This document shows positions 3,536 through 21,105 of a DNA stretch of 64,000 bases, one piece after another. The notes beneath the pieces are model-generated. The model worked only from the letters and a program-made list of their open reading frames with translations, did no database searches and was not told where the DNA came from. How positions within the stretch are numbered: the stretch's first letter is position 1; each line of letters begins with the position of its first letter. The position numbers and the translations under genes were made by a program. The DNA is from Bacillaceae bacterium (GTDB taxonomy: Bacteria; Bacillota; Bacilli; JACDOE01): assembly GCA_017656255.1 (NCBI GenBank), contig JACDOE010000010.1, positions 36,400 through 100,399 of the forward strand, read 5' to 3'.

Positions 3536-3544
3536 TTTACTCTG

Positions 3545-3920
3545 TTATTTTCGTTCCGGATGTTTGCGGTAAAATTCATGCAGCAGCTTCATCAAGGCCC
3601 TTTTTTCAATCCGGGAGACATAGGAACGTGAAATCCCCAGCTCTCTGGCAATTTCCCGCTGCGTCTTTTCTTCTCCCGATTCAAGCCCGAACCGGCCGAT
3701 GATCACCTCCTTTTCTCTTTTATCCAGCACGTGAATGTTTTTGTAGATCTTGCTTCGTTCGATTTTGAATTCCACTTTGTCGATGACTTCGTTGGCGTCT
3801 GTTCCGAGGATATCCATCAGGCTGATTTCGTTACCTTCTTTGTCGGTGCCGATTGGATCGTGGAGGGAAACGTCTTTGCGGGTTTTTTTGAGGGAGCGCA
3901 GGTGCATGAGGATTTCATTT
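3545..3920 (-). pseudogene. sigK: Orphan sigK 3' fragment (codons ~122-245 plus stop)
   Basis: Nucleotide-identical to 8150-8526 of the intact sigK except one synonymous difference (3551 vs 8156); identity ends abruptly at 3920 where AT-rich DNA begins; lacks the sigK 5' half. Confidence 0.85.
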
Positions 3921-4024: not shown

Positions 4025-4816
4025 TTATTTCACTGCCTTCCATATTGTCCATCTATCTTTTTCGACTATATTTTTTTCTATATTAATTGACTTATCTATA
4101 TATTTTATTAGTTTATCCAATTCTTTATCATCTATTTCATATAAAATGCTTCTTCCTGTTCTATTCCTTAAATCTTTAAATAATTCCTCTTTCGTTTCAT
4201 GTACCTTTCTTATTTCCCATAACTTAACTTCTATAACATCTCTGAATCCAACATATTTAAGGGATTCAATAACAGTTTGTCCATTATGACGTCGATCAAT
4301 TTCTTTTTCAATTAGTCTGGGGAAAAGTTTAAAAAAATATCCTCTAATATGAGTTTCGTCCCCTTCTAATAAGCAATCTTCAGGGGTACGGTCTTGAACA
4401 ATATAATATCCATCTTTCTTTAATAATCTATATGCTTCTTTGAAACAAGCATATAAGTCATTAATATGATGTATTAATGCTCTTTCAAGTAATAAATCAA
4501 AACAGTCGCTTTCTAAATCAGTATCAAAAGCATTTCCATACTTAAAAGATATGTTTTTATATTCCTTACAGTTTTCTTCAGCTTCTTTAAGTATAGCTTT
4601 TGAAAAATCAACACCAGTAACGGAAGGTACACCCATATCCGAAAGTGCTTTACAATATATTCCACCACCACAACCGACATCTAAAGCTTTAGAAACATTT
4701 TCGATTGGTACAAGTTTTTTAATTGCTTCTATCCATGATTTGTCTGCCTTTCGTGTTGAATAAGTCTTGCTGTTTTTCTTATTATGAAAATCTATACCCA
4801 TGGTAAATCTCCTCAT
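4025..4816 (-). CDS. Class I SAM-dependent methyltransferase
   Basis: VDVGCGGG motif I; start probably at the internal Met (MGIDF...). Confidence 0.65.
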   Translation of the reverse strand: MRRFTMGIDFHNKKNSKTYSTRKADKSWIEAIKKLVPIENVSKALDVGCGGGIYCKALSDMGVPSVTGVDFSKAILKEAEENCKEYKNISFKYGNAFDTDLESDCFDLLLERALIHHINDLYACFKEAYRLLKKDGYYIVQDRTPEDCLLEGDETHIRGYFFKLFPRLIEKEIDRRHNGQTVIESLKYVGFRDVIEVKLWEIRKVHETKEELFKDLRNRTGRSILYEIDDKELDKLIKYIDKSINIEKNIVEKDRWTIWKAVK

Positions 4817-4926
4817 TCTATTGATTAAACTTTTATAGGGTAAATTTATATGAATGTTTATAATTTACCTCTTTAATTTTAAAACATACCACTAATGTTG
4901 CATAAATAGTTACAGAAAATCCAGAT

Positions 4927-5460
4927 TTATATGTTTGCGTGGAAATGGGCTAAAAAGCCAAATGCTAAAGTAAAATGTCCATTTAGAGTTGCAACGATAT
5001 AGATTTTCTTATGGACTACCTCGGATTTCCCATTGAATTTGGCGAACCATTTTTGAAAGGGATTTAATGTTTGTAACCAACGTTTGAAGAAGGGATTGCT
5101 TTGTTCTGTTTCCACGAGTAAACAATTTGTGATTAGGGCGGATTAAAGTCGGTTTTGAACCACCGTTTCCCATTTATACCATAAAAACCCTTTATTCAAA
5201 CATGTTGCTTAAACTATTTGAATAACTTAATTCCCCAACGAAACCAGTAGGTGTTACTAATCTGTTTAGCACTAATATCAAAGCGACTAGTAACGAATAT
5301 CTTTGCCTTGTGAGTCTACCGTTTCCACTAATTGAAATTCATTTTCGGTTCGCTTTACGTAGTTCCGATGACAAAGAGTCTAAGGAAATCGTTTTTATTT
5401 CAGATATAGCAAAGTGCTTGATTGTACAGTTCAACAACGGAATTTTTCTTGAGTCGTGAA
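4927..5460 (-). pseudogene. Possible degraded DDE transposase (IS remnant)
   Basis: Minus-strand frames give stop-interrupted peptides resembling transposase C-termini (ENEFQLVETVDSQGKDIRY, DISAKQISNTYWFRWGIKLFK); family not assigned. Confidence 0.25.
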
Positions 5461-5932
5461 GCAAAAGAAAATCCTTTAATAAGAAAAGCGATCAAAAAAC
5501 GTACATAGATTCTTTTTAGTCAATCAAAATCTCATGTTGCTAAAATTTGTTCACACGTTAAGAGTGATGATGACTTTCTCCGTAGATGGTACCGAAATCG
5601 ATAAATGCCAAACTTAAGTATAGTTTTACCCCTGCTTTTGTTTTTTGCGAAAGGATTCTCACTGGTAGTTTGTTAAATACATGTAGAATAATACTTGAAT
5701 TAATGATTTATAGATCAACTCATTTACCAAATAACTTGTCACATAGCGTTTTCCTTTCCTTTACTTTAGATTTGGATAGGGATCACCTATACTCTCCATT
5801 GTAAAGGATTTATAACACTTGCAGATCGAACATTCATTGTATTTTTAATACTCTGATTTAATTATTACAATACTAATACATAACAATCTGAATTATAAAT
5901 ATTATTCAAAGATTAACTTTGAAAGGTGCGTT

Positions 5933-7144
5933 TTATTTCATATCCAACTTACTGTTATACTTAATCGAGTCGGGAAGTGGAATATGCTCTACCTTAGGAA
6001 GAGATAAAAGACTTAGTAAACATAAACCCATAAATCCCAAGAATACATAGTGCGTATTCATAATCCCAGCCAAATACCCAGAAAGCAAGGCTGAAGAAAT
6101 CTTAGCAAATGATACCACAATTGACCGGAAACTAATCACGCGGCCCATTAACTCTTTAGGAGTGTTAATCTGAACCAGTGTCTGCATAGAAATCACATGA
6201 AATAGAATGAAGAATCCGAACCCGAACAAAGCAAAAACTGTAAACCAAACGTACCCATCAATTCCCATAAATAAGGAAAATACTACTAAACCAACTAAAG
6301 TTACCACACTAACTTTCTCTTTATATTTATATAATGCTTTTTCCACAACAAATCCACCCAATGATCCACCTAGTGTGAATGAAATGGTTATTATAGAAAA
6401 TAAAACGCTGGAACCTTTCATATCTCGTGCAACCATTGGAGCGAGTAGAGTATTTGTCATTTGATACCCTGCACTACTAATAGTAGCGAGGAAAAACAAG
6501 TATAACATTCCTCTTTTTTCATTTACAAACTTCCAACCAACTTTAATACCTTCAATAACGTCCATACTTTTACTTTGAATATTACGTCTATCTATTCGAC
6601 GAAGCAGTATAAAGAAAATTGATGATACCATAAAGGTTAATGCATTGATTGCAAAACAAATTTCTACTGATAAAATAGACATTACGATTCCTGCTATACC
6701 AGTACCAATCAATGCCATGACAAAATTAATTGAAGATGACTTAGAGATAACATAAACCATTTCTTCATCGCTGAATGATTCTCTAATTAACGTTTGAGAA
6801 GATGGCTTAAATACCAGATGACAAACTGCTAAAACAACTTGAAGAAGATAAAACATAACAATTGATATAGTATCTATAAAAATTAACAGAACAACAATAG
6901 ATACAGCTAACCCACGAATTAACTGAACAGCAACTGTTAACACTTTGGAGTCCTGATGGTCTGTAATTATTCCTACCCATGGTGCGAAAAATAAGGGAGG
7001 TAGGTAATTAATGGCGATTAATATTCCAAGGGACAGGGGACTTCCTGTAAGTTTTAAAACCAACCACATCAACGCTACCGATTGGAAACCATCTCCTAAA
7101 TTATTAATTGCTGAACCTAACAAATAAAAGAACTTATTTCGCAT
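5933..7144 (-). CDS. MFS transporter
   Basis: 403-aa ORF, about 12 predicted hydrophobic helices, N-terminal region typical of MFS efflux pumps. Confidence 0.7.
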   Translation of the reverse strand: MRNKFFYLLGSAINNLGDGFQSVALMWLVLKLTGSPLSLGILIAINYLPPLFFAPWVGIITDHQDSKVLTVAVQLIRGLAVSIVVLLIFIDTISIVMFYLLQVVLAVCHLVFKPSSQTLIRESFSDEEMVYVISKSSSINFVMALIGTGIAGIVMSILSVEICFAINALTFMVSSIFFILLRRIDRRNIQSKSMDVIEGIKVGWKFVNEKRGMLYLFFLATISSAGYQMTNTLLAPMVARDMKGSSVLFSIITISFTLGGSLGGFVVEKALYKYKEKVSVVTLVGLVVFSLFMGIDGYVWFTVFALFGFGFFILFHVISMQTLVQINTPKELMGRVISFRSIVVSFAKISSALLSGYLAGIMNTHYVFLGFMGLCLLSLLSLPKVEHIPLPDSIKYNSKLDMK

Positions 7145-7308
7145 AGTTGTGCCCTTCCATTTTTTATTTTAACTGGAAAATCATTTTATTTAGAAACATT
7201 AAATCGAGGAGGAATCGAAAAATAACATTCAAAAACACACTCTCTAAAATATATCCTTAAACTGTTGCTATTCGAATTCCTCCTCTGACATTCATGAAGT
7301 GAAGTGTT

Positions 7309-7989
7309 TTATTGTCTTCGTAATGAAAGGTTAGATAACTTAACGAAGCGTTTATATTTAAGAATAGTATCTAATACATCGCAAAGAATTAACATATTAG
7401 ACTCTTCCCCTGGAAAGTCACCCCAACTATCGTCATCGTTGCGAATGCTCATTAACCATTTGAAACCTTTTTCAATAGTGTTATGCCAAGAATAATCATC
7501 AAGGAGTTCACTCGCTAATATTAATGCTCGAATACTGTCACAAGTGTGGTCAACATTCATGTTATCGTAATGTCCTTCAGGATGTTGAGTCTTAACCAAG
7601 TATTGAACTGCTTTCTTAGAAGCTTTAACACCTTTCTTATCATATCCAAGAGTCTTTTGTAATAAGTGTGCTGTAACACAAACTGGTGTTTCATACTTTT
7701 CTTTATATTCCCATTCACCATCCTTACCCTGTCTTTCTATAATAAACTCCATAGCTTTGTTGTAAGGTTCTTCTACCATGTTTCTAATACGTTGTGGTAT
7801 ATCTGGAAGCATTCTAGCGAACATCAATGTACCGGCGCTTACACTAACAGCATCATAGAGTCCCCACTTATCATCCCACAAAGTCCCATCCTCTTTTTGT
7901 TGAGTGATTAACCAGGATAACCCATTATAAATTGCATTATCAAATCGCTCATTCCTCTGAGACAATGCATTATTAGCACGTAGAAGCAT
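7309..7989 (-). CDS. Prenyltransferase/squalene-cyclase-type (QW-like) repeat protein, possibly a fragment
   Basis: Repeated Q-x2-DG-x-W motifs (QQKEDGTLW, RQGKDGEW, NDDDSWGDFPG); only 226 aa and abutting the sigK repeat junction. Confidence 0.4.
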   Translation of the reverse strand: MLLRANNALSQRNERFDNAIYNGLSWLITQQKEDGTLWDDKWGLYDAVSVSAGTLMFARMLPDIPQRIRNMVEEPYNKAMEFIIERQGKDGEWEYKEKYETPVCVTAHLLQKTLGYDKKGVKASKKAVQYLVKTQHPEGHYDNMNVDHTCDSIRALILASELLDDYSWHNTIEKGFKWLMSIRNDDDSWGDFPGEESNMLILCDVLDTILKYKRFVKLSNLSLRRQ

Positions 7990-8149
7990 TTGTGTAGAAA
8001 ACGCAGTTTTTCTTACATGGCTTTTAATTTCCTTAGTGGTATTTCCCCAGCCACCATCCTCATGTGGGATAGAGCCCCATCTGAATTAACAGGGTCTGGG
8101 GTTTACACAGAAAAATTGACAGACCCTCCCCTTATTTTGACGTGTGCTT

Positions 8150-8887
8150 TTATTTGCGTTCCGGATGTTTGCGGTAAAATTCATGCAGCAGCTTCATCAA
8201 GGCCCTTTTTTCAATCCGGGAGACATAGGAACGTGAAATCCCCAGCTCTCTGGCAATTTCCCGCTGCGTCTTTTCTTCTCCCGATTCAAGCCCGAACCGG
8301 CCGATGATCACCTCCTTTTCTCTTTTATCCAGCACGTGAATGTTTTTGTAGATCTTGCTTCGTTCGATTTTGAATTCCACTTTGTCGATGACTTCGTTGG
8401 CGTCTGTTCCGAGGATATCCATCAGGCTGATTTCGTTACCTTCTTTGTCGGTGCCGATTGGATCGTGGAGGGAAACGTCTTTGCGGGTTTTTTTGAGGGA
8501 GCGCAGGTGCATGAGGATTTCATTTTCAATACATCTTGCTGCGTATGTGGCCAATTTGGTCCCTTTGTTTACCTTGTAACTTTCGATGGCCTTGATCAGC
8601 CCGATGGTGCCGATGGAGATCAAGTCTTCGCTGTCTTCGCCGGTGTTTTCAAATTTCTTGACGATATGCGCCACCAGGCGAAGGTTATGCTCGATCAGCA
8701 TATTCCGTGCCTCAACATCTCCCTGTTCCATCAAGCGTAAGTATTTCTCCTCGTCTTCTTCCGACAGTGGCTGGGGAAAGGCATTGTTCTTGACGTAGGA
8801 GACGAACAGAATCAGTTCTTTGTACAGAAGCGCCAGTAACCCGAGCAGTCCAGACACCCGATCCCACCTCCAGGAATAGTGCTTCAT
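8150..8887 (-). CDS. sigK: RNA polymerase sporulation sigma factor sigma-K (pro-sigma-K), intact
   Basis: 245-aa ORF with pro-sequence and conserved sigma-70 regions 2-4 ([84 protein letters not shown]), closely matching B. subtilis SigK from memory. Confidence 0.9.
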
Positions 8888-9061
8888 TTATGCCTATTCC
8901 CTTCTGGGCTTGTTTGTGTCTGTACTAAAAAAACTGTAATCAGTTTTATTTGCTTTTTTAAATTCTTTAAGTAAGTATCATATAACACCATAACAGACAG
9001 TAAAAGACAAGATCCCGGTTTGAATACCGAGATCATCACAGTAACTTAATACATCTCTAAT

Positions 9062-9562
9062 TTAATTAACCTTCTGATCATAAAACGCAATGGCCTCATC
9101 TATTAATTTTTCAAGATGTGGTTTAAGTTCAATTGCTTTTGATTTAGCTTTGTGTGTGTCATAGCCTAAATCAATTAAAAATGCATATGTACTAACCATT
9201 TCCAAAAACTGAGAACTTTCCTTGACCATAGAATTCAAAAGATCAGTATTAATTTTTAAAGAGTATCCTCCATCAGCTTCTAAAGTTTCTTTAAATGCTT
9301 TCCCCTTCTTAGTAATAGAGTACACATAAGCTTCATCGTTTTTTGATTCAGTTAGAAATCCTTGTTGTACTAAAGTATTTATCTCTTCTTGAAGTTCTGC
9401 AGAATATGGGCCATAAAAGTGGTATTCATACTTAAATGGTAAATCTAATCCGGCTGATTCAAGCAAATGCACCATCTTTTGTACCTTTTTTCGACCGTGT
9501 ACCTTTTTAATTTCATCAAACAGACTCAATAAACTGTAGGCTCCTTCGAACAATTCAATCAC
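9062..9562 (-). CDS. Panacea (DUF4065)-like protein, possible antitoxin-type partner of the HD protein
   Basis: GRKKVQKMVHLL...FYGPYS resembles the Panacea/SocA-like signature; start overlaps the HD gene stop (ATGA). Confidence 0.35.
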   Translation of the reverse strand: MIELFEGAYSLLSLFDEIKKVHGRKKVQKMVHLLESAGLDLPFKYEYHFYGPYSAELQEEINTLVQQGFLTESKNDEAYVYSITKKGKAFKETLEADGGYSLKINTDLLNSMVKESSQFLEMVSTYAFLIDLGYDTHKAKSKAIELKPHLEKLIDEAIAFYDQKVN

Positions 9563-10869
9563 CCTCCAAAAATTTCATTTTTATAATCTTCGGGCATAAA
9601 GTATCTATCTATAGAGATTTTTTTATTTCTAATTCCATTAATTATATCAGAGATCACTGATAATTCTGTACCATTTCCGTTATTATCAAATAAAATTATT
9701 TGCTCTGAAGCTTCACGTTCGCCTTCTTTTTCATCCGTTTTGGGCGTATGAAAAATATAGGGATCTTTGTATGAACTACTTTTAGCTTCGTCCATTAGAA
9801 AGTAGTACTTAATTGGAATGCCTTTTTTGTTTGAATATTCGAATACCTCCTGCCAAAACTCCATAGGACTTTTGTCTGGAATGGAAACTGACTTAAAAAA
9901 CTTTCTTCTTAATAGTCGAGTACAAAGATCGCTCAATATCGAATCTTGGTGTCTACTCCATATCGAAATAAAATACCAAATCGTATTATCTGTTAAATTA
10001 ATATAATTATGTAGTGTTTCTTTAAGGTTGCCTTTTTCTGATAAAATCCGAATCAAATCTTCAGGAAATTCAATCTCCTGTTTTTCTTGAAAAATCTCAT
10101 AAGCTCTATTAAATATTTTATCTACTAGTAGTTCAGCGCTCCGAGTTGTTTTGTGAAAATACACATTCATATACATATAGTACCTTGCCATAACAAAATC
10201 TTCGGCTATACTAATACCTTTTTCAAGATCTAACCCTACCTCAATTTGACCATTATATTCACCGATTCTCAATACATTTATCATCCATTCAAGATCGAAT
10301 GAACCGTAGCCTGCACCAGTCATTTTAGAGTCTCTTAATAAATAATCAATTCTATCTGTATCTAACTGACTTGATAACAATTTCACAAGAGCTTTGGATC
10401 TATGAGTTCGTTGAATAACATCAGCAACTTCATCTGGGTCCACATTGTACTTTTTGAGAACGCTATTGATTTCTGTATCCCCACGTATTATTTCTATTGT
10501 CCACTTTTCATGTCTAACGCCAGTTGTTTTTTCTAAAGCATGGGAAAAAGGGCCATGCCCAATATCATGTAGGAGTGCTGCAGTTAATGCTAACATTCTA
10601 TTATCAGCTAGCTCTTGAGAATATTGTTTGTATTGTTCATCCTTTAAGCTACATATCTTATTAATAAATCTTTTAGTTAAATGTGTCACACCAATAGAAT
10701 GAGCAAACCGAGTATGTTCGGCTCCTGGATATGTAAATGACGATAATCCAAGTTGTTTTATATGGCGTAGTCTTTGAAATTCTTGGGTATCTATTAATTC
10801 CAAAAGCAAAGCATCTGATTCTTTATCAAAATGAATAATATTATGTACGGGATCACGAATAGTTTTCAC
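9559..10869 (-). CDS. HD-domain dNTP triphosphohydrolase-like protein (dGTPase/SAMHD1 family)
   Basis: Motifs RFAHSIGV, LLHDIGHGPFSH, DTDRIDYLLRD characteristic of HD dNTPases; 436 aa. Confidence 0.7.
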   Translation of the reverse strand: MKTIRDPVHNIIHFDKESDALLLELIDTQEFQRLRHIKQLGLSSFTYPGAEHTRFAHSIGVTHLTKRFINKICSLKDEQYKQYSQELADNRMLALTAALLHDIGHGPFSHALEKTTGVRHEKWTIEIIRGDTEINSVLKKYNVDPDEVADVIQRTHRSKALVKLLSSQLDTDRIDYLLRDSKMTGAGYGSFDLEWMINVLRIGEYNGQIEVGLDLEKGISIAEDFVMARYYMYMNVYFHKTTRSAELLVDKIFNRAYEIFQEKQEIEFPEDLIRILSEKGNLKETLHNYINLTDNTIWYFISIWSRHQDSILSDLCTRLLRRKFFKSVSIPDKSPMEFWQEVFEYSNKKGIPIKYYFLMDEAKSSSYKDPYIFHTPKTDEKEGEREASEQIILFDNNGNGTELSVISDIINGIRNKKISIDRYFMPEDYKNEIFGG

Positions 10870-10917
10870 ATTATCACCCCATTATAAAACTCTTTAATTA
10901 TTATCTAACTCGACAAA

Positions 10918-11556
10918 CTAGAATGCATTGTGTTTTCCCATTTGTCTCAGTACTTCTAATCTATCTAAACAACTTGTACATAATAAGCAATGTCGATCCC
11001 CTAAAGCATTACAAGAAAAGGTTTTTTCTATTGGTACTGACATGTTAATTGCCTCATCAATTACAATCTGTCTGTCTAAACCCACAAATGGAGTGATCAA
11101 TTCAAATTCATGAAGTGATTCTGAAAGAGTAGTAGATATGCTCTCTATAAATGACTTACTTGTATCCTTATAAGATCTTGACCCAGTCACACCTATTGCT
11201 ATTTTTCGTATATCGTTTTTATACGCATATGCTCCAGCCAAAGATATTAAAATCATATTTCTGTTCGGAAAAAACTCGGTATTAAACCATTCTTCTGCTG
11301 AATATCCTGATTGAGGACTATCCCCCACAAGTGATCCAGAGCCAAGGTGCTTCATATTAGAAATGTCTAAAAATAAGACTTTATCCGCATACTCATTTCC
11401 TATTATTGATTTAATTGCTCTAATTTCGCCAGACACTGTTACTTGCCCATAGTTAATATGAATAGGGAATATATCGTATTTTCTTTTTCGCAACCAATAA
11501 TAAAGAACAACAGAATCAATGCCCCCTGATAATAATAATACGACTTTTTTTCTCAT
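10918..11556 (-). CDS. QueC-like PP-loop ATPase (7-cyano-7-deazaguanine synthase family)
   Basis: PP-loop SGGIDS near the N-terminus and a C-terminal Cys cluster (C-x8-C-x2-C-x2-C) as in QueC. Confidence 0.75.
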   Translation of the reverse strand: MRKKVVLLLSGGIDSVVLYYWLRKRKYDIFPIHINYGQVTVSGEIRAIKSIIGNEYADKVLFLDISNMKHLGSGSLVGDSPQSGYSAEEWFNTEFFPNRNMILISLAGAYAYKNDIRKIAIGVTGSRSYKDTSKSFIESISTTLSESLHEFELITPFVGLDRQIVIDEAINMSVPIEKTFSCNALGDRHCLLCTSCLDRLEVLRQMGKHNAF

Positions 11557-12818
11557 AATATATACAACTTCTCTATTAATTCTTCAATAGATTCAACTAT
11601 AACATTACAACCATAAACTAGCATATTATTTAATTCAAACTGTGAGGTTTTTAAAGCAATTATAGGGATACCTCTTTCATAAGCAAACCCAACTTCAAAA
11701 CATGTACCCGGATCATTATGATCTAACAATGCTACCACAACATCAGATTGTCTTATCAAGTCAAGATCTTTATCAAAAATATTTTTGCGTTCATCCATTG
11801 GTGTGTCTTTCTTTATAATTCCATTTTCTCGTAGAGGTGATAAAACTTTAAATCCACAATTTTCTATTCTATTCGTTATTAATTTAACCCAATCCTCTTC
11901 CTGTTTACTAAAAAATGGACCTGCCAAGTAAACGCTTTTGTCTGAATTACCAGATACAACAATTTCTCTTCTGTCCATATCTTCTTCTACCGCTACTCTA
12001 TTTATTATATTTTCAATTGTAAAATTCTCAATGAAGTTAGCAGCAACACAACTTGCTAACCTCGTACTATACTCAATATCCCTCGTCCTGAGAAATGTAG
12101 CAGCTAATGCACCACCAAAAACATCACCAGAGCCTAAAGTGCATTTAACATTACTTTTATACGCCGGTATATGTATAGTCTTTCCTTCGTTTACTAGAAT
12201 ACAACCTTTATATCCTCTTTTTACGATTATGTACTTAGGCCCCATATGAATTAACTTTTCAATAGCATTCTCTAAAGTATTTGCTTGAGTTAATAATAAA
12301 ACCTCTTCCTCATTTACTAAAAGTACAGATACATATTCTAAAATTTTTCTAGCATCATGAATTGATTTGCTATTTGGTTTTGGGTCAAGAAAAACAGGAA
12401 TATTTTTTTCACATGCTTGCTTACATAAATCTTCCGGAAGCGAGTGATCCACTGGAAATACTAAGATACCCTCACATTCATCACTTAGCTGTGGATTATA
12501 TTCAATACCGATTTTAACATCTATCAAAGGAGTACTTTTTTTAACTTCATAAGCTTTATAACCTTTTACTAAATATTTTGGCAGACAATAATTTTCCATA
12601 TATTTAGCACTCGAAAAACTTACACCCATTAAGTTCCATATTTTTATACTATATGAATCGATTTCGGGCCCGTATACTGTCATAAACTCAACATTGATGC
12701 CTTGTTTTGCTGCAGATATTGATGCATATAAACCGGCTCCCCCAAATCTATCGATAATCTTTGTATCATAATCTAATAATAAGTCAATACCTATCTCTCC
12801 GTATACAGCAATATTCAT
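11553..12818 (-). CDS. PfkB-family kinase fused to a nucleoside 2-deoxyribosyltransferase-like domain
   Basis: N-terminal ribokinase-like motifs (GGAGLY; TLGSGDVFGGALAA); C-terminal NDT/Rcl-like motifs (VYLAGPFF; DPGTCFEVGFA with putative catalytic Glu). Start set at the internal Met with a GAGGTG RBS; the track ORF runs to 12866. Confidence 0.6.
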   Translation of the reverse strand: MNIAVYGEIGIDLLLDYDTKIIDRFGGAGLYASISAAKQGINVEFMTVYGPEIDSYSIKIWNLMGVSFSSAKYMENYCLPKYLVKGYKAYEVKKSTPLIDVKIGIEYNPQLSDECEGILVFPVDHSLPEDLCKQACEKNIPVFLDPKPNSKSIHDARKILEYVSVLLVNEEEVLLLTQANTLENAIEKLIHMGPKYIIVKRGYKGCILVNEGKTIHIPAYKSNVKCTLGSGDVFGGALAATFLRTRDIEYSTRLASCVAANFIENFTIENIINRVAVEEDMDRREIVVSGNSDKSVYLAGPFFSKQEEDWVKLITNRIENCGFKVLSPLRENGIIKKDTPMDERKNIFDKDLDLIRQSDVVVALLDHNDPGTCFEVGFAYERGIPIIALKTSQFELNNMLVYGCNVIVESIEELIEKLYIL

Positions 12819-12823
12819 CGGTA

Positions 12824-13534
12824 TCACCTCACGAATTGAAAGTATCCGTTTCTCCCTAATATCCATAATAAATAGTCCATCTTACCTAAAGGCACTCCAA
12901 TCTTCAAGCAAATAATTCGTAATGCTTCTTCATATTGTAAGTAAACCTTTTCTGTTATGTTTTTAGGAATATTATATCCTAAGTAACCAAGAAATCTTAG
13001 TATATGGATATCCAGTACTGCACAATCATTATTAAATCCTGTATTCCTTAATAGCCAACTAGCTGATTTCATGCCAATACCTGGACATTCACATAGCCAT
13101 GTTCTAGCATCAAATGAATTAAGTTCATTAAGTTTATCAAATAATCTCCAGTGACAGTTCTCCCAAAGCCAATATCCAGCCTTGGATATAACCTTAGGCT
13201 TCGTTTCCACAAATCTATATTTTCTGAACTGGCCGTTACAAGTAATGGGATAAAACTGCTTTTTTGATAACTCTCTCTTTATTACATTTTCAATTATATA
13301 TAAGTTAGATATAGAGGAATAATATTTTGCTTCGATTAACCCTTTATTCTTTAATACATGTAAACCTGATTTGTTTAACTCATAACTGATTCCAAATCCT
13401 CCAAGAACTACGAAAAAAAATTCATCTATAACTTGTTCATTAGATTTTGAAACAAACGAAAACTCTCTTTCAATTGCAATACCATAAGTTTCCCAAAGTT
13501 CTTTTAACACATTGAATGCTCTAGTATTTTCCAT
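12824..13534 (-). CDS. Ogg-type HhH-GPD DNA glycosylase-like protein
   Basis: Helix-hairpin-helix with Lys (CPGIGMKSASWLL) followed by an Asp motif (VLDIHILR), matching the 8-oxoguanine glycosylase/AP lyase pattern. Confidence 0.6.
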   Translation of the reverse strand: MENTRAFNVLKELWETYGIAIEREFSFVSKSNEQVIDEFFFVVLGGFGISYELNKSGLHVLKNKGLIEAKYYSSISNLYIIENVIKRELSKKQFYPITCNGQFRKYRFVETKPKVISKAGYWLWENCHWRLFDKLNELNSFDARTWLCECPGIGMKSASWLLRNTGFNNDCAVLDIHILRFLGYLGYNIPKNITEKVYLQYEEALRIICLKIGVPLGKMDYLLWILGRNGYFQFVR

Positions 13535-13540
13535 ATCACT

Positions 13541-13891
13541 TTACGCCTCTACCTCTACTGTAACCTTCGGGTCATGTTGATTCCCTTCTTTTTTTATTAC
13601 AACCCCCTTGTATTCCCACCCTTCTTCAATACATTTTAAGAGCCAACTGTATTTTGGAGGAACGACCCCTATACTAAAATTATCTTTTTCTTTTTTTACT
13701 TCCATGACCGGCAATGTATCATCATTTCTTAAGATAATAGACACTTCATCATTCACAGAAACATTTCTCCACACTGCTTTTTGATTCTCATTAACAATTA
13801 ATAAAATTGTAACTTTTTCACCGCATCTATTTACTGTTTTTCCAGTTCCTCCTCCAAAACCACCAAATGATGAAAAGCCACCACTTCCCAT
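13541..13891 (-). CDS. Small protein with glycine-rich N-terminus (unknown function)
   Basis: 116 aa; N-terminal GSGGFSSFGGFGGG; strong RBS (TAAGGAGGA); first or second gene of the block B operon. Confidence 0.4.
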   Translation of the reverse strand: MGSGGFSSFGGFGGGTGKTVNRCGEKVTILLIVNENQKAVWRNVSVNDEVSIILRNDDTLPVMEVKKEKDNFSIGVVPPKYSWLLKCIEEGWEYKGVVIKKEGNQHDPKVTVEVEA

Positions 13892-14024: not shown

Positions 14025-14450
14025 TTATTTCTCTAGACCAAATTCTCTTTTTAATTTATTAAAGTCATATTCTTTTATTTCGATTGGGATACTAAGGTTC
14101 TTAAGTTTTGACATCAAATCGCTTTTATTAACAACAGGTTTGTCCTCGTAAACAATTGCGAATATCAATTTAAAATTATTTATTGAAGCACTGTCTAAAT
14201 TTTTAGCTGTCTGATATAACGATTCAATAACATTACGAGTTAACTTACCTCGTTTATTATATTTTATCTCAAATCCATAAGTTGAATTATCAGTTTTACT
14301 AATACCATCAATTTCAATTAACTTATCAGAAGATTTAAATGCCATGTGTCTCTGAATAGGAATTTTAAATTCTTGTTCAAGTTTCCTAAACACCAAATCT
14401 TCAGCTAAAAAGTATTGCATTTTGGGATCAACAGTCACTTTGGAAGGCAT
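14025..14450 (-). CDS. Hypothetical protein, possible PD-(D/E)xK-like fold
   Basis: 141 aa; spaced D...E-x-K residues (IEIDG, FEIKY); weak RBS; in-frame open sequence upstream without an ATG suggests possible truncation. Confidence 0.3.
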   Translation of the reverse strand: MPSKVTVDPKMQYFLAEDLVFRKLEQEFKIPIQRHMAFKSSDKLIEIDGISKTDNSTYGFEIKYNKRGKLTRNVIESLYQTAKNLDSASINNFKLIFAIVYEDKPVVNKSDLMSKLKNLSIPIEIKEYDFNKLKREFGLEK

Positions 14451-15283
14451 GTCTAACGTACCCGCTTTATCCTCTTCAATATTATTATCACTAGAAGATT
14501 CTTCAAGCTCTGCTTCTGCTTTCTTTCTTTGTGAATCACTAGTTAATTTTAAGAAATTCCCTTCATCCTTAAAATCACTTGGCGCATATAATTTGGTATG
14601 ATAAAAATCACAAGTCTATAAAATGTAAATAAAACAAGTAAAGGGAAAATTACTATGAAACACACAAGGAACCATTTTTGAGAAACATTTAATTCCGAAC
14701 TAAATTGAAGTACTAATGCTGCTATTCCATAAATTAGTGATATAAATAATGCAATGATACCTAAGGGGTTCTTTGTAAAACCTGATGCACTTCTCGTGAA
14801 TTCTATTATTATCGCTCACCTTCCTTGTAAAAATTTTAAAATGATGCCAACGTTACTCATTCTTAATACCAATCCAAATCATATCCGTGGACAAAAATGG
14901 CTGGAAAATATAAAACATGTCTGAGTATCAAAAAATTAATCTTTTAATATAACATTCTTCTCTTTTTTCTCATTAACTCCTCCTAGCTTTTGTGCACACC
15001 AATATATTAAAAAACAATCTTCAAAACTATACTTACTCCTTTTAGATCAAAGATCAAAAAATCCCTAACAAAAAAATTAGTGTTTATTCTCAATTGTATT
15101 TCGGTAAAAAAACAGATAATCCCTTTTAGGACAAATAAAAAATAATTAGTAAGGATATCACTCTATACTATATACTTATCTGAATTAATAGGTTTAATTG
15201 GTTTTATAATTATCTTCTTTTAGCTATTTGAAACCCCCCCTGACCCAGCACCACACCAGCATTCTTCCGACATCGCTTCGTGT

Positions 15284-15561
15284 TCACAACCTCTTGACGA
15301 TATGCGCCACCAGGCGAAGGTTATGTTCGATCAGCATATTTCGCGCCTCAACATCTCCCTGTTCCATCAAGCGTAAGTATTTCTCCTCGTCTTCTTCCGA
15401 CAGTGGCTGGGGAAAGGCATTGTTCTTGACGTAGGAGACGAACAGAATCAGTTCTTTGTACAGAAGCGCCAGTAACCCGAGCAGTCCAGACACCCGATCC
15501 CACCTCCAGGAATAGTGCTTCATTTATGCCTATTCCCTTTTGGGCTTGTTTGTGTCTGTAC
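15284..15561 (-). pseudogene. sigK: Orphan sigK 5' fragment (36-bp leader plus codons 1-77, then VKRL-stop)
   Basis: 15292-15561 matches 8654-8925 of the intact sigK with 4 mismatches, all synonymous or in the leader; homology ends at codon 77/78. Confidence 0.85.
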
Positions 15562-15742: not shown

Positions 15743-18346
15743 TTATAACCTCGGGTCAATTTCTTTCTCTTTACTTACTTCAAATAGCATGTTAGCAACC
15801 ACCTGTTTATATTTATGATCTGACTCATTTATTTTATCTAAATGAAAGGCCAACATCTCTTTCCCAAGTTTGAATTCATTGATAGAGGTTTTTAGTTTCT
15901 TTGAAATATTTTTTTGCTTTAAAAGCTTGGCATATTTGTGTGGAAAGCGATAATCATATCCATAAACAATGGTTAAATAATCTGGATTGCGAACTTTCAT
16001 ATAAGGGGCAGTATCATCTGCCAATTTTTCAGGTTTAATCACGACACCTTCCATTTTTCTTTCTGTTGTCAAAGTCTTAAAAAAGGTTAAAGCTTTTTCA
16101 TAATAATCCTGTTCGTTTAAATCGATCAACATAAATTCATCATCAGATACAAACTTAAAAATTTCCGATGTTGATTCTGCAGGGATGATCTCTTCTCCAT
16201 TTTCCTTGACCATTTTTAAAATATTAAATGGTTTATAGTTAATCTCATCATCCTTTGCATAGAGCTCGATTTGTTCATGATATTTTTGATGGGCTTCCAC
16301 ATGTTTTTCTATTGGTTCATATGACTTTAACATAGTTTGCAACGCCTTATAAGTCTGGTAAGTGGCACCGCCAAACTTTTTAATCAAATCTTTCTTAGAC
16401 ATTGTTTGCTGATCGACTTCATAGTCACTTGATTTATATTGCTCAACAAGTTTTTGAAAGTGGGCATCAAAGCCTTGCTCCTTTAAAAAATCCAACTCTG
16501 TTTGTAAAGCTCTGTCTATAGTCCTAAATTGCTTTTCAATCAATTCCTCTCCCAAAATAGACCAGGGCAGTAATTCACCATCAAACACGATTGTTTTTAT
16601 TTTATTCTCTTTCATGTAATCCGAAAATTTATTTAACAGATTATCATATACCGGAGACAAATCCACTTTCTTAATTTTAAATCCATTTCGACTCACTGCA
16701 TAACATTGATCTAGTTCCCTTGCTAAGTAAATGTTACATCTTGACCCCATGTACTTCGGTTGCAAAACCACTTTATGGACGCCTTTTCTCTTAAAATACA
16801 ACAACCCCTGTTTTAAAGATTCCAATTCATTGCTATCCAAATCTTTGTCAGCCGGCGACATGGTACCAGAAATATAATTAATCTTATTTTTCAAGACATA
16901 ATTAAGGCGCTTTTGGTCCTGTTCATGTAAATCCTCGATGTTAACATGTTTATCTCTTTGTTTAAATAAAGTAGGTAAAGGTTCGTTCCAGTATTTACTA
17001 GTGCTTGTAATTCGCTGCTGTTTAAAAAACGGTCTCCAGGAGTCAATCACAACAGAAGAAAGAACATTTCCATTGGCAGCTCCCGTATCAATGTTAATCT
17101 TATTTTTAATTTGGACTATTTCTTTTACAGCAACATGTCCAAAAATATGATACGGATGATTTCCAACACTCTCTGACTCCAGAAAGTGCAATTGCTCCTC
17201 GTAGGGTTTTTCTCGATCAAGAACAAAGCTTCTTTGCTTTTTCAGAGACGTTTTATCTAACTTCCCTATATATTTGTTTTGACACGGAGCATGTGTCACA
17301 TAAAAGGAAGGCTTTTGTAATCCAATATACCTGTAGAATTCTTTCGAAGATTCAACGAGTCGGAAAAATTTGTGTTTTAAATCCTCATCCTTTTCAAAGA
17401 TTTCTATAGAGTCAAAGTAGTTGTCTAGTAAACTTGAATCTACTGAATTCTTATCAATTTCACCTTTCAAGTATTTGTAAACAAAATTCTCATGATTTCC
17501 TTTTACAAGCACAAAATGATCCATATTTTGTTCAATAAATTCTACCGTCTCTTTGGTAGCATTTCCTTTGTCAATCCAGTCTCCGTTAAGAATAATTTTA
17601 TATTCATCCGTTTTTTCAGTGGATAAAATACGATTATTTTCAATATTAAACCCATAGCTGATAAGCAGCTTTTTTAAATCAGCCACTTTTTCATGAACAT
17701 CTCCAACAATTATATATTTGTGTTCCTGCGGCAAAATATGACTGAGATAATGATCTAAATCCTCTATCATAATTTTATAATTTGCATTCGGTTCATTGGT
17801 ATCAGGGTTATAGAAATCCCGCTCCCTAATTTTGTGTATTCGACGAAATTTTGACTTTGAAATTTGTTTCAGAACCTCTCTTTTGAGACGAGTGACATGA
17901 TTTGAAATTAATCGTCTTGAACCACCTGAAGCATAGAAATCTTCTCTATTTTTAAAATCAAAAAGTATAGCTTCCAGGTTATATTGCTTTTCTTTAGCAA
18001 TTTCCATGATTTGCTCACGGAATTCTTCTGAAAGGCCAATTGTATCAACAATGACGAACTCGGCGTTAATTGGAAATGACGTAACGGCTTTTAGTTTCTC
18101 AAATAAAATATGAAAGGCTTGTTCGCTGCTTTCCATCATAATTCTGTCATGTTTGTCATATTCATGTCCCAAAATATCCTGCCTGATTTCATCAGAGGAA
18201 ATATATTGAACATTGGTTTTAAAGCCCCGATCCTTATCCTGAATAGAAAGTTGAGGCAACAATATTTCTTTAGCAAATGTTGATTTACCGGAATTAGTAG
18301 CACCAATTAACATAAATATGGTATGCATATTTGTTTTTAATTCCAT
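15743..18346 (-). CDS. pnkp: Polynucleotide kinase-phosphatase (Pnkp): kinase, metallophosphatase and ligase-like domains
   Basis: 867 aa; P-loop GATNSGKST; calcineurin-like GDVHEK and GNHE motifs; C-terminal domain with a KYMGSR lysine motif; size and order match bacterial Pnkp. Confidence 0.8.
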   Translation of the reverse strand: MELKTNMHTIFMLIGATNSGKSTFAKEILLPQLSIQDKDRGFKTNVQYISSDEIRQDILGHEYDKHDRIMMESSEQAFHILFEKLKAVTSFPINAEFVIVDTIGLSEEFREQIMEIAKEKQYNLEAILFDFKNREDFYASGGSRRLISNHVTRLKREVLKQISKSKFRRIHKIRERDFYNPDTNEPNANYKIMIEDLDHYLSHILPQEHKYIIVGDVHEKVADLKKLLISYGFNIENNRILSTEKTDEYKIILNGDWIDKGNATKETVEFIEQNMDHFVLVKGNHENFVYKYLKGEIDKNSVDSSLLDNYFDSIEIFEKDEDLKHKFFRLVESSKEFYRYIGLQKPSFYVTHAPCQNKYIGKLDKTSLKKQRSFVLDREKPYEEQLHFLESESVGNHPYHIFGHVAVKEIVQIKNKINIDTGAANGNVLSSVVIDSWRPFFKQQRITSTSKYWNEPLPTLFKQRDKHVNIEDLHEQDQKRLNYVLKNKINYISGTMSPADKDLDSNELESLKQGLLYFKRKGVHKVVLQPKYMGSRCNIYLARELDQCYAVSRNGFKIKKVDLSPVYDNLLNKFSDYMKENKIKTIVFDGELLPWSILGEELIEKQFRTIDRALQTELDFLKEQGFDAHFQKLVEQYKSSDYEVDQQTMSKKDLIKKFGGATYQTYKALQTMLKSYEPIEKHVEAHQKYHEQIELYAKDDEINYKPFNILKMVKENGEEIIPAESTSEIFKFVSDDEFMLIDLNEQDYYEKALTFFKTLTTERKMEGVVIKPEKLADDTAPYMKVRNPDYLTIVYGYDYRFPHKYAKLLKQKNISKKLKTSINEFKLGKEMLAFHLDKINESDHKYKQVVANMLFEVSKEKEIDPRL

Positions 18347-19618
18347 TTACTTTTCACCTCTTGCTTTAACCAAAACTCCCTGAGTGGTATAAACCCCGTC
18401 TACACAATCGCCAATACTTAAATGATGAATCTCAAAATCTCGTTCATCAAAAATCTCACTTATCCATTGTTTAAATTCATTTGTCCCCATTTCCCATTTA
18501 TGATCTTCATGCCGATATTCATCCAGGGAATAATACTTATTAAAATCATGATTTGGAGTCGTTATAATAATGGATTCAAAATGAATGTCATCAAGAATTG
18601 TTAAAATTAGTTTTTTAGCCTCATCCTTCTCCATGTGTTCAATGACTTCTGTAAGGATGACATCAACTAATTCCCCATTGTAATCTTCAATAAAATCCTC
18701 AATGGATCCATAAGTTAATATATTTTCAATACCCCTTTTTTTAATTCTTGCATCCAGCGAACGAATGATATCTTCATCAATGTCAATGGCATAATAGTAT
18801 TTGTCACCTATACTTTCGGAGAAAAGAAAGGCATAATAACCTTCCCCACATCCAACATCAACAATTGGTTTGTTGAAGGGTAATAACTTTTTTATCGCTT
18901 CTCTTCTTTGGTGAGCTGTATGTCCGTAAGAAAAGTTTATGTCATACCTTTGTGTTTCTTCCAGGCTTTCTTTAAATTTTGAAAATAATTTCCTGCTGGT
19001 AAGTATGTTTCGTGCAAACAGATACCTTATAAAAAACGGAGCATCCAGGACTTTAATTTGATTAACATACTTTTCAATCAAACTATCTGTAACATCAAGG
19101 TATTCGTTACCTATTAAAGATAAAAATAAAAACAATAGATTAGCTGTATTCAATAAATCATAAATACTTTTGTTCGTTTTGATTTTAATTGAATAGCTCT
19201 TGTGAGATTGATGAATCATTTCGATAGAGAAATCCTCAAAATGTTTGCTAAAAAAATCTATATATCTTGGTAGTGTGATATGAACCATATTCACAAATAA
19301 TTCATTTTCATATCCTTCAAGATCATTATCATACCGGTTTTTGATTGTGGAATTAAAGAATTCTGTCATTGCGTTTAATGGAAAAAGAGGTGTATTATAT
19401 CTTGAAACATTTAGATATTCAAAGCTTTCTTCTTTATGTTGCTTGTAAGATATCTCGTTGTCAGCGTCCTTAAAATATATATTGTAGGTTTGATCATCAG
19501 AATACCAGCCAAACGCAATTCCCTGTCTGACTGTACGCAACATCATGCCTGAAGCTGGATTTTTGCGTATTAAAAAAGAAAAGTGCGGATTCGTTGATTT
19601 TAACTGAACAATAGCCAT
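18347..19618 (-). CDS. hen1: Hen1-like RNA 3'-terminal ribose 2'-O-methyltransferase
   Basis: 423 aa; C-terminal class I MTase motif (VDVGCGEGYY); stop abuts the pnkp start. Confidence 0.7.
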   Translation of the reverse strand: MAIVQLKSTNPHFSFLIRKNPASGMMLRTVRQGIAFGWYSDDQTYNIYFKDADNEISYKQHKEESFEYLNVSRYNTPLFPLNAMTEFFNSTIKNRYDNDLEGYENELFVNMVHITLPRYIDFFSKHFEDFSIEMIHQSHKSYSIKIKTNKSIYDLLNTANLLFLFLSLIGNEYLDVTDSLIEKYVNQIKVLDAPFFIRYLFARNILTSRKLFSKFKESLEETQRYDINFSYGHTAHQRREAIKKLLPFNKPIVDVGCGEGYYAFLFSESIGDKYYYAIDIDEDIIRSLDARIKKRGIENILTYGSIEDFIEDYNGELVDVILTEVIEHMEKDEAKKLILTILDDIHFESIIITTPNHDFNKYYSLDEYRHEDHKWEMGTNEFKQWISEIFDERDFEIHHLSIGDCVDGVYTTQGVLVKARGEK

Positions 19619-19773
19619 CTACTTTCACTCCTGTTATTTCCCTCAATCATTTTCCAATAAACCAATAAACTTTAATTGCTATACTAACCTGATTCCCAGT
19701 TCAAAAGAATAATCAAATAAAATATGAAAAGAGGAAAAATGTAGTCCCCTTTTCCTAGTGCTTGGTAAAAATA

Positions 19774-21105
19774 TCATGCTTTTGAAGATATACAACACAA
19801 CATAAAGAGACCAATTATGAATCCATATAAGATTAAAATCCAGTAGCATAAACTTAACACATACTTTCTTTTGATTCGTCGTCTCATCTGAATCCAATAT
19901 TCAATTATAGAGGCTTTAAGTAATATTCGGACATAAAAAAATTGATATATCATAACTAGCAATATAATCCCCGCTGTCATTATTGTCGCAAGTAACAACT
20001 TGAACCAAAAAGAAACAGTTTGAATATCAATCATCATAATAAATAGTAATATGCTGCCCCCTGTTCCTAATGCAATCAGTAACAGCATAGATAAAGAAGC
20101 AATAATTCTTTTAGATAGGGAAATATGGTCAATATTTAACGTTTCCTCCAAAACTTCTTTGTTCTCCTCATGATTTTTTAGTTCGTCAAGATTTTCAATA
20201 CCTCTTAAATCAAAAAAGTCTCTAAACTTATCTAAAAACCACTTAGCTATATCATGTGCATCTTTTTCAAGTTCTTCAGAACGAAGAGATAATTGGATAT
20301 ACTTTTCATCTTTATCTGTCGTGTCTTCAATAACACCTTTAACTCCCTCTCCCCTTCTATCAATCTGGATATACATAAGTAATTGATCCTCTTTAATTTG
20401 AAAAATTATCTGAATTTCATCCATCTTATCCCATAGAATTTCCTTTATCGGTTTAAAATCGTATATAAACATAAAAGGTTTCTCATCACTATAGGTATAA
20501 AAAGAGTTGAAATTCATTCTCATATTATCAATAGACACATGGGATTCTGTTTTTAAATTCTTTTTATATCCTTGCCAATTTTTAAACTGATACAAAATGT
20601 AAGATAATGAAAAACCAAGTTCTTTCTGAAGAGCTTCAATTACTTTTTGTACCCATGGATGAGGGAAAACATTAATTTCGTTATATTCCTTCCAATTTGG
20701 CCACTTGTCAAGGGAGCATATCGTGTCAATCGATATATGAAAGAATCCTTTAGAAACCAAATCCTTATCTCCATTTTCTGATTCTTTTACATTGTGAACG
20801 GCAATAGGGGTATCATAGGGAACCTGAAAAGAAAAGGAAAATTCTAATTTTTCACCAATTTCAATTTTACGTTCTTTTGCAATCGTAGTTTTTAACAGTG
20901 GGACACGAGAATATATTAAGTCGTCACGGGTATCCATTTTTGTTGTAATCTGAATGACTAATTCCTTAATTATTCTTTCCTGTATTCCTCCCTGAACTAT
21001 TACTTTGCCCGATACTTGTTCACCGGGGCGGTAATAATTTTTATCCAGAATAGTCTTGATTGCTATATCTCCATGTCTTAGCCTCCAAAGCTTTTTTCTT
21101 AACAT
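19774..21105 (-). CDS. Spo0M-like (arrestin-like) protein fused to a C-terminal multi-pass membrane domain
   Basis: N-terminus DKNYYRPGEQVSGKVIVQGG resembles Spo0M; the C-terminal ~130 aa are strongly hydrophobic. Confidence 0.45.
   Translation of the reverse strand: MLRKKLWRLRHGDIAIKTILDKNYYRPGEQVSGKVIVQGGIQERIIKELVIQITTKMDTRDDLIYSRVPLLKTTIAKERKIEIGEKLEFSFSFQVPYDTPIAVHNVKESENGDKDLVSKGFFHISIDTICSLDKWPNWKEYNEINVFPHPWVQKVIEALQKELGFSLSYILYQFKNWQGYKKNLKTESHVSIDNMRMNFNSFYTYSDEKPFMFIYDFKPIKEILWDKMDEIQIIFQIKEDQLLMYIQIDRRGEGVKGVIEDTTDKDEKYIQLSLRSEELEKDAHDIAKWFLDKFRDFFDLRGIENLDELKNHEENKEVLEETLNIDHISLSKRIIASLSMLLLIALGTGGSILLFIMMIDIQTVSFWFKLLLATIMTAGIILLVMIYQFFYVRILLKASIIEYWIQMRRRIKRKYVLSLCYWILILYGFIIGLFMLCCISSKA

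Follow-up and report, generated by a model that had tools for sequence, protein, structure and literature searches.

We tentatively read a pair of adjoining minus-strand genes in a 64,000-nucleotide (nt) stretch of DNA from a Bacillaceae bacterium (contig JACDOE010000010.1, positions 36,400 to 100,399; the whole stretch is hereafter called the window) as a horizontally acquired module of the Bacillus subtilis ywfO–ywgA type. By analogy with characterised enzyme–inhibitor pairs, the small YwgA-family protein would bind the neighbouring HD-domain deoxynucleoside triphosphate (dNTP) triphosphohydrolase as a regulatory subunit, most likely restraining hydrolysis, an account to which we give slightly less than an even chance. 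The features that make up the pair, in window coordinates, are as follows.

10874..10880, minus strand: Shine-Dalgarno-like GGGGTGA ahead of the GTG start of the HD gene (sequence reading)
9559..10869, minus strand: HD-domain dNTP triphosphohydrolase homolog (YwfO/EF1143/SAMHD1 type), 436 amino acids (aa), GTG start (Pfam HD and HD_assoc_2)
9563..9567, minus strand: GGAGG Shine-Dalgarno of the YwgA gene, within the last HD codons (sequence reading)
9062..9553, minus strand: YwgA-family protein, 163 aa from TTG 9553, with a predicted fold like that of the DarG C-terminal domain (homologs, hidden Markov models, AlphaFold2 model, Foldseek)
9011..9034, minus strand: terminator-like hairpin with T-tract, 28 nt past the YwgA stop

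A dNTPase homolog with its catalytic residues in place

The assignment of the 436-aa protein as a full-length homolog of EF1143/SAMHD1-type dNTPases is well founded. In a comparison with solved structures, its residues 2-429 align with Enterococcus faecalis EF1143 (2o6i, 3irh and 4lrl; E 1e-77), and its HD core with human SAMHD1 (E about 1e-22). It carries the motifs RFAH57S, LLH101D102IGH105GPFSH110, H120E121 and D170xD172RxD175Y, in which H57, H101, D102, H105, H110, H120, E121, D170, D172 and D175 are invariant across 82 HD relatives. A sequence-only reading of the window had described this product as an HD protein with canonical dGTPase/SAMHD1-type motifs, and the full-length EF1143 match and the complete set of H, HD and D residues bear this out. 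Because homology to EF1143 is combined with intact catalytic residues, the enzyme would be expected to convert dNTPs into deoxynucleosides and triphosphate. The PADLOC dGTPase model matches the protein weakly. EF1143 and SAMHD1 are both under allosteric control by nucleotides. The B. subtilis counterpart, ywfO, has so far only been speculated to be a pyrophosphohydrolase (PMC4993169).

The small gene and its coupling to the HD gene

Both open reading frames (ORFs) lie on the minus strand where the sequence-only reading had placed them (HD 9559..10869, 436 aa; small ORF 9062..9562, 166 aa), and the N-terminal string that it quoted, GRKKVQKMVHLL…FYGPYS, is found in the smaller one. Hundreds to thousands of homologs were recovered for each, and both are therefore genuine genes rather than chance ORFs. 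The 166-aa version stems from a mechanical call that runs from GTG 9562 to 9062. The true start of the YwgA gene is likely TTG 9553, since the 163 aa translated from this codon match a database protein (P0001, from a Bacillaceae metagenome-assembled genome, or MAG) at 100% identity, YwgA homologs begin with MF[ED]xA, and the GGAGG at 9563-9567 sits 9 nt ahead of it. This TTG is located 5 nt past the HD stop codon (TGA, 9559-9561).

With either start the two genes are tightly coupled, because the ribosome-binding site of YwgA lies within the HD coding sequence. The spacing is also conserved: the median projected gap from HD stop to YwgA start is -1 nt, and 65 of 75 loci have a gap of at most 30 nt. 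Translational coupling had been proposed from an ATGA overlap; the tight coupling holds but the ATGA does not, the mechanical ORF overlapping the HD stop as GTGA. Downstream, the transcription unit probably ends at the hairpin at 9011..9034, which is the sole minus-strand terminator-like site between 8700 and 15800.

YwgA resembles the toxin-binding domain of DarG

A search with the small protein gave 67 homologs, the best at E 1e-99, and many of them carry the name 'YwgA family protein' or 'uncharacterized protein YwgA'; a profile of the family matches 4,082 representative clusters (E ≤ 1e-3). The best 150 of these matches are 85-204 aa long, mostly 155-190 aa. No fusions of YwgA were seen among the best 150 matches of this representative search and the best 120 word-index matches, all of which stand alone.

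Judging from profile comparisons and the predicted structure, YwgA is a homolog of the DarT-binding domain at the C-terminus of DarG, its closest characterised relative. This relationship follows from two independent libraries of hidden Markov models, a sequence profile and a fold match. The PADLOC DarG model matches the YwgA protein over positions 166-298 of 329 (E 7.8e-11) and the NCBIfam DarG model over positions 184-305 of 338 (E 1.6e-7, at 30.9 bits against a cut-off of 250 bits). A 130-sequence YwgA profile also matches the sequence of 7yk3_B (E 0.004), pairing LQK…YGPYS with IQKLMYF…RYGPYS. The AlphaFold2 model, of high quality (predicted local distance difference test score, or pLDDT, 94.6), consists of a winged helix followed by a helical bundle, and its only significant Foldseek matches in the PDB are 7yk3_B and 7yk3_D, over the full length (probability 1.0, E 1e-4, template modelling (TM) score 0.61-0.63, ~188 columns). 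Chains B and D of 7YK3 are the DarT-binding C-terminal domain of Mycobacterium tuberculosis DarG, a domain that blocks DarT through direct binding according to Deep et al. (2023), as cited in PMC13621843.

Other parts of a DarTG system were sought as well. The 163-aa protein gave no Macro domain match, and no DarT-like gene was matched in the operon, where the gene upstream of YwgA encodes the HD phosphohydrolase. Neither Pfam, NCBIfam and PADLOC scans nor the AlphaFold2 model revealed a nucleotidyltransferase or other enzymatic domain in YwgA. Its conserved polar residues are GRKK.QK, GPYS, E69, E118, T122 and K144. Across the family the 'recognition helix' and wing are acidic (K/R 7-10%, D/E 19-25%) and the median isoelectric point (pI) is 5.9, which together disfavour a role in DNA binding. 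Literature searches on YwgA and ywfO found nothing functional: the ywfO–ywgA pair is annotated, widespread and functionally uncharacterised, and a link between YwgA and the toxin-binding domain of DarG was not found in the literature searched.

The sequence-only reading had instead likened the N-terminus of the 166-aa protein to the Panacea/DUF4065 domain. We rejected membership in that family, as the Pfam check returned no match to PF13274 (SocA_Panacea) even at E ≤ 10 and hhalign of narrow alignments gave a probability of 0.1%. The gathering score of PF13274 is 25.7 bits, and the positive control, PanA of phage phi52237, reaches 65.8 bits. Only 1 of 29 YwgA family members, the most divergent one (P0067), reaches the model at all, at a sub-threshold 18.8 bits (E 0.003), and this Panacea-leaning member adjoins an HD gene too.

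What survives of the comparison is a likeness at the level of the motif. Against a PanA family alignment built around the experimentally validated phi52237 protein, hhalign gave YwgA probabilities of 0.1%, 2.8% and 27% (the last with 207 versus 47 sequences), with E from 0.5 to 6.5e-4 over ~58 columns. Weak as these signals are, the alignments, where produced, always pair GRKKLQK…YGPYS of YwgA with TNLxQKLAY…WRFGPV of Panacea, so that the near-invariant G-P-Y-S falls at the GPV position, as a variant of the motif and not GPV itself. GPV is a conserved Panacea signature that is critical for neutralisation (PMC8832971). The AlphaFold2 model of the PanA family (pLDDT 95.6) has no wing and has its N-terminal topology in common with the YwgA model: a helix, a QK-helix, a hairpin with GP, and a further helix. 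Its single credible PDB match is 7yk3_B (probability 0.91, TM 0.46), the same chain that tops the YwgA list. A fold search of BFVD for viral proteins like Panacea yielded nothing of that name, only winged helix-turn-helix proteins of archaeal viruses. Independently, DUF4065 proteins have been described as homologous to the DarG C-terminal domain (2026 paper, PMC13621843). On the combined profile and model comparisons, YwgA is closely related to the DarG C-terminal domain, with Panacea at most a remote relative via the same fold.

Distribution of the pair across genomes and replicons

In about 68 of 80 genome loci anchored on YwgA, its immediate upstream neighbour is an EF1143-type HD gene in the same orientation, and these pairs span Bacillota, Alphaproteobacteria, Rhodothermales, Myxococcota, Acidobacteriota, Desulfovibrio and Bacteroidota. 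No other partner enzyme of close YwgA relatives was found, and the HD-less loci with enough upstream flank turned out to be decayed, with truncated YwgA genes, insertion sequence (IS) elements or HD remnants. On mobile replicons the family is close to absent: YwgA occurs in 1 of 72,556 plasmids, in none of 50,697 phage genomes and, as a relative, in 2 IMG/VR contigs. HD–YwgA is thus an ancient, mostly chromosomal, conserved enzyme–partner module that occurs on its own in many phyla, and no classical mobile toxin–antitoxin system. The latter is disfavoured because many HD genes have no YwgA (see below), the Bacillaceae copies show housekeeping synteny, and plasmids and phages all but lack the family.

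The sole plasmid match lies on NZ_CP140268.1 (locus L172, 315515-323904), a 410-kb non-mobilizable Priestia megaterium 'plasmid'. Its neighbourhood reads pta, lipoate ligase, rsfA, HD, YwgA, ywhB-like tautomerase, ywhC-like protease, YwhD and PBP1A, a block order that matches B. subtilis 168. The locus is a chromid-like or chromosomal segment, no typical plasmid.

The two viral contigs differ in what they carry. One (L089, 4992-5504; IMG/VR UViG_3300033150_001288) has a full-length YwgA gene that matches the family profile at E 1e-37 and stands as an orphan, no HD gene lying within 5 kb. The phage could use it to counter the HD dNTPases of its host. The other (L090, 2937-4944) has a YwgA-to-HD pair that overlaps by a few nt.

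Broken HD genes were also found beside intact YwgA genes. In Salicibibacter kimchii (L088, 5032-8504) the HD gene is interrupted by an IS insertion, and further loci (L004, L010, L024, L065, L009, L016 and L027) have HD frameshifts, in-frame stops or a near-complete deletion; these loci come mostly from MAGs, in which sequencing errors are possible.

A tentative model and its rivals

Under the model that we favour, the HD gene product would hydrolyse dNTPs, while YwgA, made from the ribosome-binding site within the end of the HD gene in roughly stoichiometric amounts, would bind the enzyme directly and hold back hydrolysis until some cue frees it. On this account, a six-gene cassette of the nucleotide/7-deazapurine type, in a low-GC island of the window, has taken up the pair at its 3' end, where it plausibly supplies a dNTP-hydrolysing, effector-like step. 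In favour of the model are the full-length EF1143 match with its invariant catalytic residues, the homology of YwgA to the DarG C-terminal domain, the recurrent position of HD directly ahead of YwgA with close spacing, the lack of any other partner among close YwgA relatives, the acidic recognition helix and wing, and the coherent clades that YwgA-linked HD proteins form in a neighbour-joining tree. Binding and restraint are suggested by precedent, since the DarG C-terminal domain blocks DarT, Panacea proteins act as antitoxins, and CloB restrains CloA in the Clover system (see below). The broken HD genes beside intact YwgA and the orphan viral YwgA are consistent hints in the same direction.

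A number of observations weigh against this model. When metagenomic loci were anchored on the HD gene, 51 of the 65 informative EF1143-family loci had no YwgA within 3 kb; in the 14 where YwgA adjoins, it lies downstream on the same strand in 8, upstream in 5 and convergently in 1, and some clades have the two genes the other way round. In the neighbour-joining tree, the YwgA-linked clades, about four in number, are interleaved with YwgA-less ones, and the YwgA-less HD proteins of L118 and L126 nest among the linked ones. Apart from T242, no HD alignment column separates YwgA-linked from YwgA-less enzymes, and there is therefore no obvious docking or lost-allostery signature in the enzyme. In addition, the characterised relative EF1143 is self-regulated by nucleotides.

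One rival, in line with the toxin–antitoxin-like control layer that the sequence-only reading had proposed within the larger operon, is a classical type II toxin–antitoxin or abortive infection system, in which the HD dNTPase is the toxin, YwgA a labile Panacea-type antitoxin, and loss or phage displacement of the latter unleashes dNTP depletion. This would be in line with the DarG-like fold of YwgA and its remote motif-level similarity to Panacea, with the tight coupling of the genes, with the island context both in the window and in Paenibacillus azoreducens (McrBC, Mrr and an SLFN-like helicase), with the several loci in which HD is disrupted and YwgA intact, and with Clover, where an unrestrained dNTPase is toxic. 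We nevertheless consider it unlikely. YwgA does not belong to PF13274, it was found at just one plasmid, no phage genome and two IMG/VR contigs in the searches above, and in Bacillaceae the pair is embedded among housekeeping genes of conserved order (pta–lipoate ligase–rsfA–HD–YwgA–ywhB/C/D). Moreover, 78% of informative HD-family loci have no YwgA, intact YwgA-less HD genes occur beside YwgA-linked clades, and the overexpression of EF1143-family proteins for crystallography, as implied by the existence of 2o6i and 2q14, suggests no strong toxicity. A type II toxin family is consistently partnered and its module typically mobile, and HD–YwgA is neither, though this copy does lie in an island.

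The same co-occurrence and coupling fit activation as well as inhibition, and YwgA might accordingly be a positive or targeting partner, that is, a sensor or adaptor that activates the dNTPase, shifts its specificity for substrates or allosteric ligands, or brings it to a target, be this a nucleic acid or a protein. Its conserved polar residues (the GRKK.QK and GPYS motifs, E69, E118, T122 and K144) could form a ligand or interface site, and the abundance of YwgA-less HD genes would be explained if YwgA added a function rather than suppressed a danger. The characterised homologous domains (DarG C-terminal domain and Panacea), however, are all inhibitors, and a pure activator does not predict YwgA being retained beside a disrupted HD gene; we regard this alternative as rather improbable. 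We judge it very unlikely that YwgA is instead a winged-helix transcription factor (PadR/DUF4364-like) that autoregulates the operon and has no physical tie to the enzyme. Pfam winged helix-turn-helix models do match (DUF4364 in 28 of 29 members, HTH_45 and PadR), but all below their gathering thresholds; one UniRef entry is named 'PadR family transcriptional regulator', and Foldseek matches PadR-like proteins weakly (TM about 0.4), whereas over its full length YwgA is closest in structure to an antitoxin domain that binds a protein, not to a DNA-binding regulator. The family-wide acidity of the recognition helix and wing, with the low median pI, speaks against this role, and a regulator would need neither stop/start coupling nor strict pairing with one enzyme family across phyla.

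The restraint model also has a more far-reaching form, which we hold to be a long shot of about the same order as the positive-partner alternative. In this form YwgA would be an inhibitor or sensor of the DarG C-terminal domain/Panacea superfamily that gates an EF1143/SAMHD1-type dNTPase, the orphan phage YwgA would serve as counter-defence, and the dNTPase of the window would be the effector of a defence cassette not yet described, whose QueC-family enzyme would modify a 116-aa protein at its glycine-rich N-terminus in a deazaguanylation-like reaction.

Comparison with known systems

The ywfO–ywgA genes of B. subtilis, from which the YwgA family takes its name, belong to the same two families as the window pair, with the same order and close spacing, and both of their products are uncharacterised. 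The window pair differs from this type in ending a six-gene cassette in a low-GC (guanine + cytosine) island rather than occupying a housekeeping locus. EF1143 shows homology to the window HD protein over its full length, and SAMHD1 over the HD core, with conserved catalytic residues; neither is known to have a YwgA-like partner. DarTG has the order DarT–DarG, an enzyme followed by its binding protein, as in HD–YwgA, but YwgA is without a macrodomain and its neighbour is an HD phosphohydrolase, not the ADP-ribosyltransferase DarT. PanA/Panacea (Kurata et al. 2022, PMC8832971) likewise places a small protein beside an enzyme, with a common N-terminal topology. In contrast to Panacea, which has the GPV signature, is hyperpromiscuous and is often phage-associated, YwgA has GPY, one partner family (HD) and a β-wing, and is near-absent from phages and plasmids.

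The closest functional analogy is Clover, likewise an operon of two genes, one of which encodes a dNTPase and the other the product that restrains it. Clover comprises the dGTPase CloA and the nucleotidyltransferase CloB, and CloA is toxic without CloB (PMC12265719). The two systems differ in the means of control, as CloB makes an inhibitory nucleotide (p3diT), whereas YwgA appears non-enzymatic and would act as a protein ligand. They also differ in the enzyme, CloA belonging to a Dgt-like branch and the window HD protein to the EF1143 branch.

Bacteria and humans alike use SAMHD1-like enzymes to deplete dNTPs, as an antiviral and a cell-cycle strategy. How such enzymes are prevented from starving the replication of the cell itself is under active study, and the inhibitory nucleotide of Clover is one recent answer. 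The HD–YwgA pair, present in many phyla including in B. subtilis, yields the testable hypothesis that a protein subunit gates a bacterial dNTPase. It would also extend the DarG C-terminal domain/Panacea fold to a new, strictly dedicated enzyme partner. If gating proves true, thousands of bacterial lineages across many phyla would set their dNTP pools through an 'antitoxin-like' subunit. The six-gene cassette, for its part, is a candidate for a new nucleotide-centred island system.

The cassette and its island

On the minus strand the cassette runs from the 116-aa protein through an Ogg-HhH glycosylase, a PfkB–nucleoside 2-deoxyribosyltransferase (NDT) fusion and a QueC-like protein to HD and YwgA, the pair thus forming its 3' end. 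The remaining features are as follows.

13541..13891, minus strand: 116-aa protein, product of the first conserved cassette gene, whose conserved N-terminal tail (MGS…) is rich in glycine and disordered (no family match)
12824..13534, minus strand: Ogg-HhH N-glycosylase/DNA lyase-like protein (Pfam PF22175, E 4e-21; NF002305, E 1e-25)
11553..12866, minus strand: PfkB kinase fused to a nucleoside 2-deoxyribosyltransferase domain (Pfam PF00294 and PF05014)
10918..11556, minus strand: QueC-family protein (Pfam QueC, E 1.7e-37; under the TIGR00364 cut-off); it adjoins HD–YwgA in L001 and L082 too
8656..8925, minus strand: 5' segment of sigK (270 nt), with a second copy at 15292-15561 (99% identical); the 6.4-kb cassette segment lies between the two

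The six genes, the first of which encodes a protein of 116/117 aa, occur in the same order in Cohnella sp. WGS1546 (L001, 3704-8495) and in P. azoreducens (L082, 5638-10498), where the cassette adjoins McrBC-, Mrr- and SLFN-helicase-type genes. A 141-aa gene upstream in the window (14025-14450) is not conserved with the cassette. PADLOC 2.0 had no model that matched the PfkB–NDT, Ogg, 116-aa or 141-aa proteins, and its QueC model did match. In a survey of QueC proteins, the PfkB–NDT fusion is the hallmark neighbour of 'cluster 4' (PMC13329287).

The 116-aa protein starts MGSGGFSSFGGFGGGTGK… and its P. azoreducens homolog (L082, 5638-5991) MGSSGYSGGSYGGAGGGA…. Homologs in L001 and L082/L083 have the same N-terminal character, namely an N-terminal Gly and a glycine-rich disordered tail followed by a conserved domain. 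In this respect it is reminiscent of the substrates that QueC-family 'deazaguanylation' enzymes modify at an N-terminal glycine (QatB/QatC and the type IV cyclic oligonucleotide-based antiphage signalling system, CBASS; PMC13279940). By this analogy, the QueC-like protein may modify the 116-aa protein.

The cassette segment has a GC content of 0.30-0.33, against 0.45-0.53 in its flanks. The window HD and YwgA proteins are 54-73% identical to copies from Paenibacillaceae and Desulfitobacteriaceae and ~36-41% identical to those of the Bacillaceae housekeeping type, and this closer kinship outside the Bacillaceae is consistent with horizontal acquisition of the pair. The surroundings of the cassette are themselves unusual. 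Read along the minus strand, the layout comprises a sigK 5' fragment, the 6.4-kb cassette, an intact sigK, a 4.3-kb low-GC segment and a sigK 3' fragment. Translation of 15284-15523 shows that the 15292-15561 copy retains SigK aa 1-77, after which it reads RL and stops. The intact sigK-like gene lies at 8150..8887 on the minus strand, and its 3' 300 nt (8147-8446) are duplicated at 3542-3841 (99%). No integrase was seen among the ORFs scanned in the two low-GC segments. The arrangement looks like two islands integrated into sigK, each with a replacement piece, or else like an artefact of MAG assembly.

The other low-GC segment (4025-7989) encodes a class I S-adenosylmethionine-dependent methyltransferase (263 aa), a major facilitator superfamily transporter (403 aa) and a prenyltransferase/squalene-cyclase-repeat protein (226 aa), and an imperfect 25-nt repeat is found at 5044-5068 and 14669-14693. 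Directly upstream of the cassette segment, on the same strand (15743-21105), lies a Pnkp–Hen1 RNA-repair pair (an 867-aa kinase-phosphatase-ligase and a 423-aa Hen1 methyltransferase), preceded by a gene for a Spo0M/arrestin-like protein of 443 aa that has transmembrane helices at its C-terminus. The low GC of these three genes fits an island composed of multiple systems.

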